From Amoebidium appalachense (lineage: Eukaryota > Protista > Ichthyosporea): a stretch of 64,000 nt of DNA. Shown here piece after piece: positions 47,576 through 50,500 of this stretch; the first letter of the stretch is position 1, and the number at the start of each line of letters is the position of its first letter. The position numbers and the translations under genes are program-made. The notes beneath the pieces were generated by a model. The model did no database searches. It had not been told where the DNA came from and saw nothing but the letters and a program-made list of their open reading frames with translations. Location of the stretch: contig CAVNZM010000005.1 in NCBI GenBank assembly GCA_963693365.1, positions 1,054,001 to 1,118,000 of the forward strand, written 5' to 3'.

Positions 47576-50500
47576 ATGGAAACCACTACACCGCCCCATG
47601 GCATCACAGTGGTGCCCAGTGGGCCCATGAGCACTTTTGACGACTTCTGCGCCTGGTACAGGAACCAAGTGGAGAAAAGACTACAAGGGGATGGATTGTT
47701 CTCAAAGCAAACAGCAGCAAACAAAATCAAGAGGGAGTATAGTGGCCAGTTGGCTGCTCTAAACGAAGGAGCGAGGGAGGCACGGGCACAGTACGCTGCT
47801 ATGGAGGCAAAGCTCGCACCAGACCAGAGGTGGGTCACAGCAACTCTGGTAGCATGCAAATTTTATTTTTTTTTGGGTGGGTACCGCAATTACAGCATGA
47901 TTATGCCCTGTAAGTTTTCGCTCTCCGTAATCCACGGTATGGACAATTAATACTTTTCTCTCTTAAAGGGGCATGCAGAAGGGTTGGGCATGAGTAGGGT
48001 GGGAGATGTGCTGGAGACGCAAGAAAAGGAGTATGGCCGAACCGAAAGGAATCGTGTGCGTGCGAATACAGGGATGTGTACGCATGTTATCTCTCATCAT
48101 TCTTGGTCATGGCATGCATAAGGTGCTGGGAAATGAGTAGGACAGGAGTAGTGGTGGAGGCAGGAAAAGGGCCCAAGAGAGGGGGATGGTGTGCGTCTGA
48201 ACGGTGGCATGGGTTGTTGTTTGGATCATCCAGGGAGAGGGATTATCGGGGGGGAAGTTGTGGGGGGAGAGGGGGGAAGGGGGAGGGGCACCGTTACGTG
48301 TGTATGTGTGTGGGTGTGCATGCGGAGGTGGAGGGGAGGGGAGGACGGGTGGTATAGGCTCACACGGGGTAATAAAAATGGTAGGGATGGATGTCGTTAA
48401 GCGAGTTCTTCTCAGCAGAGGAATGAAAATATTTCACTTCTCCTGTAAGAAAAATTCTTCAATACCTTTCGATGCCCTCTAATTGTGGAGTAAGACTTCC
48501 CCTTCCTAGTGTGGGGGCTCTTGGGTGTGGCACAGAAAAATGTAACCCCCTCCCCTCCCCCCCCCCCCCCCCCCCCCGGTCCACGGGTTGACCCGCCCAA
48601 GCTCAGTTGATGCTGCTGTCTGAGTTGGAGTGTCGTATATACGCGGGCTAAGGGGTCGAAACTCAGACGCAATTGATGACTTGGGTCCTCCCTGAGGATG
48701 GGCTCTGCTTATGACGCATACTGTGCACATGGCTGATGTTGCATACTTGAATGTTTGCCTTTGCATGTGTCCTGCACCATGCTTCTCGTCGTGTATGCGT
48801 ACTTTGTACCGTGTTCCGCATTCAAAACCCCCCCCCCCGGTCCCCCCGTGGGGCTCCCCCTCAAGCTCCTGCCTATTTGTCTCTCTCTTACCCGAGTTGT
48901 TTCTCTCTGACACACGTTTATTCGACCTGGGAGATTTATTGGTTCCCTCATGTGCACACACATGCAACACATCGAAACAAAACCTAACACCTGCAAAAAC
49001 ATATACAACTGAATCAACGGCACCCCCTCTCGTCTCCACCTCTTCTACTTTAACTATCAAGCATGAACATGAAAAAACACAACACGTGATATCCTGCCCT
49101 GCCACACCCCATCCCACACTCCCGGTACAACACACACACACACATGCACACACACACACACACATGTGTGTGCGCGCGCCCCTACCCACTCGCACATACA
49201 TACACGTATTCACACGTACACACATGGGCACACAGGCTTGCATCTCTTGAAAAACAAATCCAGGGTAAAAGGACAGCGCTCAAAAACATGGCATCTGCCC
49301 TGTCTACTGGAATGTTTCGAGGGCAGCCCCTTGCGGACGAAAAGAGACTTGAGTTTGCACAAAGAGTAGAGGAGGGTGAGCAAGTGGTGTGTACCTTGAT
49401 CATTCTCCCCCCCCCCCCCCCCCCCCCCCCCCCCCCCCCCTTCAAAGCCCATTCCTCCCCTAACTCTTCCCTCTCCTTCCACTCTTCTATCCCCTGCCCC
49501 TTCCTCGTTAAAAAAACGACGACCATCCTTACCACCCCAGCGTCTCTCCTGATGCATTAGCTCCCCCCCCCCCCCCCCCCCCCCCCCCTTCACCCAACAA
49601 CACAGACACGGTGAAAAACATGCGCACGCGCGCGCACATATACGCGCGCGCGCGCGCACATGCACACACACACACACACGCACACACACACACACACACA
49701 CAAACACACAAACACACCACACGCGTGCGCGCACACACACAAGCACAGCACATGGGTGTGTGCGCGCGCTGGGAAGGGTGGGAGAGAGACAGAGAGTGAG
49801 AGCGAGAGGAAGGGGGGGAGGGGGAGGGGAGGGGAGGGGAGAGAGAGAGAGAGAGAGAAAGAGAGAGGGAGAGAGAGAGAGAGAGAAGAGATGGTTTGTA
49901 TGACATGATATACCCCACCCCTTCTCCCACGCGTGCACACACACACACAGCATGCAGAATCTGTGCTAGAATGTATCTATTGCAACTTTCCACACTGGAG
50001 ACTGGGGTTTCCATATACCCCCTTCCCTCCCCTCTTCTCCCCCCCCCCACCACCCCGCGCATACCCACCCATGGCTGCTGCTACCACCCACACACTGCCT
50101 CTACTACCATTACAGCTGCCTGCATCTGTTAACATCAAACCAACGAATGAGGTTAGACTATAACACTTTTTGGTAAGCCGGCACCATGTGGCTCACCCCC
50201 TCCTTCTCCTCCCTTCACTACCCTCCCCCCTTCACACCGTTTTCCCCAAGCCCTGCATGCCCCCCCTCCCCCCCCCCCCCCCGCCCCCCATCCCTCCCCT
50301 ACCCCATGCACCCACGATACATGCCATATCCAGAGGCCCACCCATCTTTTCCTTTGCCCGGATTAACCCTGTTCACTTTGCACAGATAGTGCAGATGAGC
50401 CAATCATTGGACAGACTTCTGCAATCACGTGAGCACCAGGCCGTGCTGGCAGCCGAACAGGCACTGGCAGAATACAAAGAGAGCATTGGCTTGGCTGCTC

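Follow-up and report, generated by a model that had tools for sequence, protein, structure and literature searches.

The 64,000-nucleotide (nt) stretch of Amoebidium appalachense contig CAVNZM010000005.1 analysed here (the window) holds, on its plus strand, a 5'-truncated copy (copy 1) of a high-copy repeat targeted to runs of C. The RNA of this repeat probably folds as a non-circular hammerhead ribozyme with a split core, of the type found in Naiad Penelope-like elements, and cleavage is predicted after the GUU triplet ending at 48626. In the split core, strand 10.x of stem II lies upstream of the cleavage strand instead of directly after A9 of the CUGAGGA block. The parts of copy 1 and its flanks are as follows.

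48583-48827 (+): copy 1, subfamily 1, 5'-truncated inside hairpin V, delimited by repeat comparison
48590-48594 (+): upstream stem II strand (10.x) of the split-core fold, pairing with 48653-48657 (5 Watson-Crick pairs)
48597-48605 (+): 5' strand of arm helix P0, pairing with 48677-48684 (8 Watson-Crick pairs); putative stem I-stem II interaction helix and C-stem of the kink-turn
48606-48613 (+): kink-turn motif, a GUU bulge followed by G.A, A.G, U.U and G-U against 48672-48676
48614-48626 (+): 5' strand of stem III and GUU triplet; predicted cut 48626/48627, placed from the hammerhead consensus
48627-48648 (+): 5' strand of stem I in two parts (48627-48629 and 48645-48648), separated by a 15-nt insert with a 10-nt palindrome (48634-48643)
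48649-48668 (+): UAA linker, stem II strand 11.x, GAAA (48658-48661) and 3' strand of stem III
48669-48691 (+): 3' strands of the stem III extension, kink-turn (GA at 48675-48676), P0 and stem I
48692-48698 (+): CUGAGGA core, read from the letters
48699-48713 (+): strand after A9, with the alternative downstream stem II partner (48701-48706) and the 3' strand of helix IV (48706-48713), whose partner is lost in copy 1
48714-48827 (+): 3' tail of the repeat, ending in CATTCA before a C run
48567-48582 (+): left target-site duplication, C11-GGTCC (16-bp match)
48828-48843 (+): right target-site duplication (16-bp match)

A first-pass annotation of the letters had proposed three hammerhead segments and an upstream arm here, and all four agree letter for letter with the sequence. 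The blocks of copy 1 stand in the order S-G-C (GUU, GAAA, CUGAGGA), which is not a circular permutation, as had been proposed. A descriptor covering all six block orders found two matches in the window, both SGC, both in copies of the ribozyme repeat (48625 on the plus and 4556 on the minus strand) and with 18 stem pairs each; in 200 block-wise dinucleotide shuffles of the window, searched on both strands, there were 15 matches in any order, 2 in SGC order and 1 with at least 18 pairs. Stem III comprises 8 Watson-Crick pairs including U16.1-A15.1, and stem I comprises 4, both as earlier counted. The letters C3-U-G-A-N-G-A9, G12-A-A-A15.1 and U16.1-H17 are intact in all three copies that cover the full core, N7 being G or U. 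Stems I, II and III abut this core and, together with the covariation described below, they place the element among the hammerheads. A conventional hammerhead in the circular order C-G-S of types I, II and III is absent from both strands of the window, and Rfam gave zero matches at gathering score and chance matches only at E<=10. The minimum free energies of 48580-48830 and 48583-48712 were no better than those of shuffles (z 0.60 and -0.67), which is expected, since the copy is truncated and pseudoknotted. A 5' hairpin at 48584-48595 was rejected as an artefact of truncation, the same bases sitting in hairpin V and stem II in copy 2.

The complete form of the ribozyme is found in this second copy, on the minus strand.

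4357-4757 (-): copy 2, subfamily 1; its 5' limit, at about 4757, is uncertain, and the C's that end another repeat lie at that point
4469-4628 (-): complete ribozyme, with helix IV (4621-4628 paired with 4469-4476), hairpin V (4593-4615) and the upstream stem II strand (4586-4591)

Copy 2 is 93.6% identical to copy 1 (over 4598-4338), its predicted cut lies at 4555/4554 and its stem I extension is damaged. Minus-strand positions 4632-4464 fold at z -2.79 (1 of 200 shuffles) with helices IV, V, P0 and III. Helices IV and V had been predicted from Naiad sequences before copy 2 was inspected. Among 20000 random complex 45-mers, 150 form a helix IV of 8 Watson-Crick pairs like that of copy 2; hairpin V, with 9 pairs, arises in 179 of 20000. 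From 5' to 3', the strand order of a complete copy is IVa, hairpin V, 10.x, P0, kink-turn, III, GUU, stem I with its insert, UAA, 11.x, GAAA, III', kink-turn', P0', I', CUGAGGA and IVb. The stretch earlier put forward for transcription, 48583-48720, is a truncated one, the complete stretch being 4632-4464 on the minus strand. Copy 1 is without helix IVa and half of hairpin V, and judging from its letters it would rely on the weaker downstream stem II pairing or be inactive.

The partner of stem II decides whether the core is split. The pairing of 11.x with 48701-48706 that was first described does exist, with 3 Watson-Crick and 3 G-U pairs after a 2-nt insertion, yet the upstream strand is the likelier partner: 48590-48594 forms 5 Watson-Crick pairs at -8.7 kcal/mol against -5.1 kcal/mol downstream, 6 pairs form in copy 2, and the loose-end consensus of subfamily 2 carries a compensatory change. 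Taken together, stem II is more likely formed with the upstream strand, though both fit. Under the contrary view the element would be an ordinary type SGC hammerhead with a contiguous C block, the upstream match being a decoy or a switch. We regard this as unlikely. The downstream strand pairs at 6 of 6 positions in subfamily 1 and in the majority of subfamily 2, with two G-U to A-U changes, and its fold is the sole one open to copies truncated before 48590; moreover, type SGC hammerheads have U after A9 and permit 1-2 inserted bases there (Eckert et al., 2023; PMC10085705). Nevertheless, this pairing is 3.6 kcal/mol weaker in subfamily 1 and its changes are one-sided only. Furthermore, a copy at 2177 (minus strand) and the split Naiad entries described below have no partner after A9. 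An interaction helix between the tail, on the 3' side of stem II, and the linker is also absent (298, 79 and 199 of 300 shuffles pair as well), although SGC-3 depends on such a helix (Eckert et al., 2023; PMC10085705).

The upstream arm forms helix P0. Copies 1 and 2 each have 8 Watson-Crick pairs here, and the loose-end consensus of subfamily 2, aligned by hand, forms the helix with other letters and the bulge at the same position. Between P0 and stem III comes a GUU bulge and then G.A, A.G and U.U, a kink-turn motif of the box C/D or Kt-7 type. Shared features are the 3-nt bulge, the tandem G.A and A.G pairs, U.U at 3b.3n and a Watson-Crick C-stem, whereas here the motif lies in the arm of a ribozyme. 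Both subfamily 1 copies have the C-stem, the 3-nt bulge and the G.A and A.G pairs; the motif occurred in register in 182 of 20000 shuffles, and the kink lies 16 pairs from the core in both subfamilies. No paper joining a natural hammerhead, a kink-turn and a retroelement was found in a search of the full-text literature. The arm had been suggested to sequester the linker between GAAA and CUGAGGA; instead, it is a conserved, covarying helix matching the required stem I-stem II interaction helix, and likely part of the active fold.

Covariation between the two subfamilies extends over the other stems. Across stems III, I and the 4-bp extension of stem I, copy 1 and subfamily 2 share 15 pairs, of which 9 are the same, 5 have changed on both sides, 1 on one side and none is broken. 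The arm and upstream stem II strand of subfamily 2, taken from loose ends in three runs, pair with their own 3' strands and add about 5 two-sided changes (by hand). In public contigs, the majority letters restore the pairs that private mismatches of the window disrupt at 15429, 15431 and 15458, and at 48686 the majority letter C turns a G-U pair into G-C. The spacing from GAAA to C3 is 30 and 31 nt. Since MAFFT placed the two subfamilies out of structural register upstream of GAAA, no alignment-based pair statistics are given. This conservation bears on the view that the repeat carries a hammerhead relic, decayed or non-catalytic, or else a kink-turn RNA that binds protein. The core has decayed in most of the truncated copies, and copies read through the uncut site. 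In addition, a GUU triplet and a 3-bp inner stem I are weak. A C3U variant of the core (15446), which may be another subfamily, occurs in 3 contigs with 43% of the summed depth in run X12 and 0.4% in run X9. Even so, a relic is very unlikely: the core, spacing and helices are kept across subfamilies with barely alignable tails, majority letters restore pairs, and subfamily 1 has no core change at >=5% in four runs.

To date, non-circular permutations of the hammerhead came from one paper, nearly all of them on anonymous metatranscriptome contigs. Its main text reports 583 type SGC sequences from metatranscriptomes, with cleavage demonstrated and with none in the genomes of known organisms, and takes the ribozymes to derive from presumed rolling-circle RNAs (Eckert et al., 2023; PMC10085705). 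This, and not Xenopus as given in the first-pass annotation, is the precedent for the present order ('Xenopus' occurs 0 times in that main text). Another paper, PMC13725137, goes no further than citing the study in the relevant passages. The element described here resembles type SGC (HRIMA-1 and variants) in the S-G-C order, in U after A9, in the 2-3 nt linker from the tip of stem I to stem II and in the helix between the strand before stem I and the strand after 10.x. It departs from the published descriptor limits (CUGAUGA, linkers of 0-8 and 0-15 nt). Regarding a contiguous C block, a 6-pair partner lies within 2 nt of CUGAnGA, yet an all-Watson-Crick, covarying partner lies upstream; an interaction helix is present, namely P0, only if the upstream 10.x strand is used, which splits the block. 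It is likely, to judge by the sequences, that the repeat ribozyme works like an SGC hammerhead while failing the descriptor and probably also contiguity of the C block. CUGAnGA and its adjacent stems were assumed to be uninterruptible (Eckert et al., 2023; PMC10085705). A genomic, high-copy family opened at A9/10.1 would break this assumption of inseparability and would provide thousands of natural variants.

Close relatives appear to lie among Naiad elements. Craig et al. (2021; PMC8557442) state that canonical hammerheads are lacking in Naiad and Chlamys, that Naiad targets (TA)n, and that Chlamys is 5'-truncated and targets (C)n/(CA)n. The 54 Naiad consensus entries of its File S5 were searched for core motifs and the structures read by eye; 47 of 62 CTGATGA places, 15 of 23 CTGACGA places and few of the other two motifs were viewed, so that the counts are lower bounds, and entries were named by the FASTA header that comes after them and by their order in the sheet. 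At least 14 of the 54 entries, representing about 9-10 independent ones, have a rearranged hammerhead near the 3' end, with the split fold in 8 and type CSG in 6. In the 8 split entries (Beroe, three Acropora, two Octopus and two without visible header) CUGAnGA comes after GAAA, and the partner strand of stem II is located 5' of the cleavage strand, with none after CUGAnGA. Still further 5', beyond a hairpin, is a strand that pairs with the bases following A9. These entries, marked 'HHR_core' or 'HHR_half_core', share with the repeat the strand order and, in the 8, helices IV and V. Also shared are the ribozyme near the 3' end, 5' truncation and a microsatellite target, and the two Octopus entries have the kink-turn motif as well. 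Differences are the animal hosts, the mostly (TA)n targets, the fact that Craig et al. did not fold these sequences, the palindromic insert, seen in none of the entries viewed, and the want of a coding frame linked to the repeat here. Chlamys resembles the repeat in its (C)n and (CA)n preference, 5' truncation and protist and algal hosts, and differs in that two subclades have canonical type I hammerheads (PMC8557442). Naiad-clade elements are said to thrive without canonical hammerheads; that their published sequences appear to contain rearranged ones makes this puzzle testable. A search of the full-text literature, with subscription papers, bioRxiv supplements and most of the Eckert supplement outside it, found neither the split-core form nor permuted hammerheads in Penelope-like elements, and a term search of Forgia et al. 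(2023) found no extra helices in the part covered.

The six CSG entries (Naiad-2 and Naiad-3 of Nippostrongylus, Stegodyphus mimosarum and three without visible header) are clean and have an interaction helix, type CSG having been published from two sequences only.

The mobility of the repeat, claimed in the first-pass annotation, is borne out by the 93.6% copy, further copies and the 16-bp target duplication. The repeat is real, yet its start is not 48583, which is a point of 5' truncation; copy 2 extends further upstream. The two flanks of copy 1 are the only ones, among 248 in the window, in which GGTCC follows a run of at least 8 C's. A search with nhmmer gave 7 matches above threshold among the 13 listed. 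Besides copies 1 and 2, the following copies were recorded.

15362-15570 (+): copy of subfamily 2 whose 5' truncation falls at the kink-turn bulge; GUU 15379-15381, palindrome 15390-15395, GAAA 15411-15414, CUGAUGA 15446-15452
14352-14515 (+): subfamily 2-like copy, 5'-truncated, core decayed
24268-24418 (-): diverged copy, 5'-truncated, core decayed
52718-52892 (+): diverged copy, 5'-truncated, core decayed
31790-31905 (+): diverged copy, 5'-truncated
53971-54060 (+): diverged copy, 5'-truncated
23555-23660 (-): deleted copy, like the third subfamily (loose ends, two runs), below the nhmmer threshold
2120-2195 (-): truncated copy in which 30 nt separate GAAA from CUGAGGA, no stem II partner after A9, below the nhmmer threshold

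With ends set by eye, the 3' end of 10 listed copies lies at a C run in 7, at C-rich sequence in 2 and at neither in 1 (2.9% of positions lie that near a run of at least 8 C's), and all 5' ends differ. Such 5' truncation combined with a microsatellite target is a feature of Naiad and Chlamys elements, and the copy pattern, as read from the sequence, is that of target-primed retrotransposition. Two of the copies carry further details. In 2120-2195 the stem II strand pairs best inside the linker between GAAA and CUGAGGA (6 Watson-Crick pairs, -8.9 kcal/mol), possibly another strand order. Directly before the subfamily 2 copy, 15345-15361 (+) is a 17-nt subfamily 1 3' end with a C run, a nested insertion into the same C run.

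The stretch is contained in 20 of 24 listed public runs, under four organism codes. In four runs, 9-168 contigs per run matched copy 1 (107-168 in two of them), in four runs 4-1395 per run matched the 15362 copy, and the public contigs include two high-copy subfamilies and loose ends of a third. A pattern scan of metagenomes gave 116 loci, none like the repeat (best E 0.09, the match being forced by the pattern), and viral contigs and prokaryote genomes gave 0 matches. Two of the 116 loci pass a loose SGC descriptor; their stems are short, and they were taken as chance.

In appearance, the carrier is closer to the 3' end of a Penelope-like retroelement than to a classical type I or III retrozyme, and the earlier label 'retrozyme-like' is replaced accordingly. 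Non-LTR (long terminal repeat) retrozymes and minimal dimeric hammerheads are likewise short non-coding repeats of a few hundred bases with solo copies, are probably mobilised by Penelope-like enzymes and in some cases use dimers, according to Cervera and de la Pena (2020; PMC7229834) and bioRxiv 10.64898/2026.07.22.740005. They differ in having type I hammerheads in tandem arrays, whereas the order here is non-circular, with SGC descriptor matches only, and the window copies are dispersed. Alternatively, the ribozyme could be real but belong to a circular RNA of retrozyme type or to a satellite, with no relation to Penelope-like elements. In run X3, one contig set (records 25 and 29) closes a cycle of about 450 nt, in which record 25, a single contig, joins the 3' end of the repeat through 207 letters to its 5' part; partial tandems (pseudo-LTRs), a trait of Naiad and Chlamys elements, were not seen in the window. 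No autonomous partner was seen in the window either, and presumed rolling-circle RNAs are the source of the published SGC ribozymes. The target duplication, variable 5' truncation, microsatellite target, 3' position and strand order nevertheless match Naiad and Chlamys, and non-LTR retrozymes are themselves argued to derive from Penelope-like elements. A wholly independent circular RNA or satellite is thus considered improbable.

In the proposed mechanism, helices IV and V would hold A9 beside G10.1 even though the two are on different strands, closing the gap after A9, and P0 would link stem I to stem II at their tips, the part played by the interaction helix in types SGC and CSG. The full-length RNA would then cleave itself after GUU and so may trim tandem or read-through transcripts to unit RNAs, which a Penelope-like reverse transcriptase/endonuclease, not found in the window, could copy into C runs.

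Several observations weigh against this split-core, Naiad-type reading. Helices IV and V were seen only in copy 2. The downstream stem II strand makes all its pairs in each subfamily, and its stability in subfamily 2 is on a par with that of the upstream strand (-6.0 vs -6.4 kcal/mol), so that a switch between the two partners is possible. The covariation comes from two subfamilies alone, a set too small for R-scape, and for subfamily 2 the 5' arm was read from a 19-30-nt loose-end consensus, not from whole sequences. For its kink-turn, subfamily 2 requires A at 15366; the window letter there is G, and A occurs in one loose end but is not listed in the variant table. Among the Naiad entries, all read by eye, the three from Acropora and the two from Octopus are near-duplicates and one Acropora entry has two mismatches, and no rearranged fold was seen among the Chlamys entries viewed, the poly-C-targeting ones. 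Neither the 150 longest of the 494 frames in the window nor a motif scan yielded a reverse transcriptase or GIY-YIG frame. Finally, none of the 10 copies starts at the cut site and three run upstream past it. Therefore, the cut does not simply set the 5' end of copies, and the template RNA would have been uncut, re-ligated or tandem.

The suggestion that a dimer may be needed is kept here as a hint from helix geometry and a palindromic insert. On this proposal, which is a tentative possibility, the split-core ribozyme acts only as a domain-swapped dimer, each molecule keeping its III-kink-turn-P0 hairpin and giving CUGAGGA and 10.x to its partner, with the inserts paired. By crude arithmetic at 2.8 A per pair, a monomer with all helices leaves a gap of 46-56 A, whereas in a two-fold dimer the arms lie 16-20 A and the inserts 29-38 A apart. 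The 14-15-nt inserts that interrupt stem I carry unrelated palindromes at the same place in both subfamilies, a 10-nt palindrome occurring in 0.8% of background 15-mers and a 6-nt one in 12% of 14-mers. The self-duplex of the palindrome is worth about -12 kcal/mol, the X3 contig set closing a cycle is in line with a dimer, and dimer-dependent hammerheads are documented in amphibian retrozymes (PMC7229834). On the other side, equally strong self-duplexes form in 260 of 3000 random complex 15-mers (8.7%), the palindrome tests were post hoc, and the cycle is one contig. Melting of the weak kink-turn region (C-stem edge pair probabilities 0.15-0.31) would permit a monomer, and the Acropora Naiad fold, by eye, shows a comparable mismatch in length yet no clear palindromic insert. 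A more speculative version supposes a four-strand, non-circular hammerhead that is an obligate domain-swapped dimer, in which two kink-turns and two junctions would make a closed RNA parallelogram locked by the palindrome, cutting when two copies meet and belonging to an overlooked family that would be the 'missing' hammerheads of Naiad. If an obligate dimer is real, this would be a natural self-assembling, copy-number-sensing ribozyme whose cleavage senses tandem copies or a high RNA level.

The surroundings of the repeat are eukaryotic and include an exon with a VTT domain, a helicase with AAA_12 and RZ-finger domains and the spliced exons of a MARK-type kinase, which run on the minus strand from about 45761 to 36778. 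Copy 1, on the opposite strand, is situated about 2.8 kb upstream of the first kinase exon identified. The helicase (56267-63676, minus strand) is ZNFX1-like, with an AAA_12 domain and an RZ-type zinc finger; its named relatives among the best 120 matches are algae and fungi at <=58% identity, with no animals. Similarity searches with two other exons of the window gave no matches. A divergent protein kinase at 5569-7006 (minus strand; Pfam Pkinase, E 1e-6) is nearly intronless in a region otherwise rich in introns. A different repeat, with three copies on the minus strand (2931-3165, 3462-3716 and 4756-4952; 74-81% identical), likewise has a C run at its end and might code for an acidic peptide; its third copy is followed by copy 2 of the ribozyme repeat. 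In addition, an AT-rich island at 16001-18000 (GC 0.32 vs about 0.54) includes direct repeats at 16911-17205 and 17315-17707, and a cluster of direct and inverted repeats with a period of about 130 nt occupies 50606-51281.

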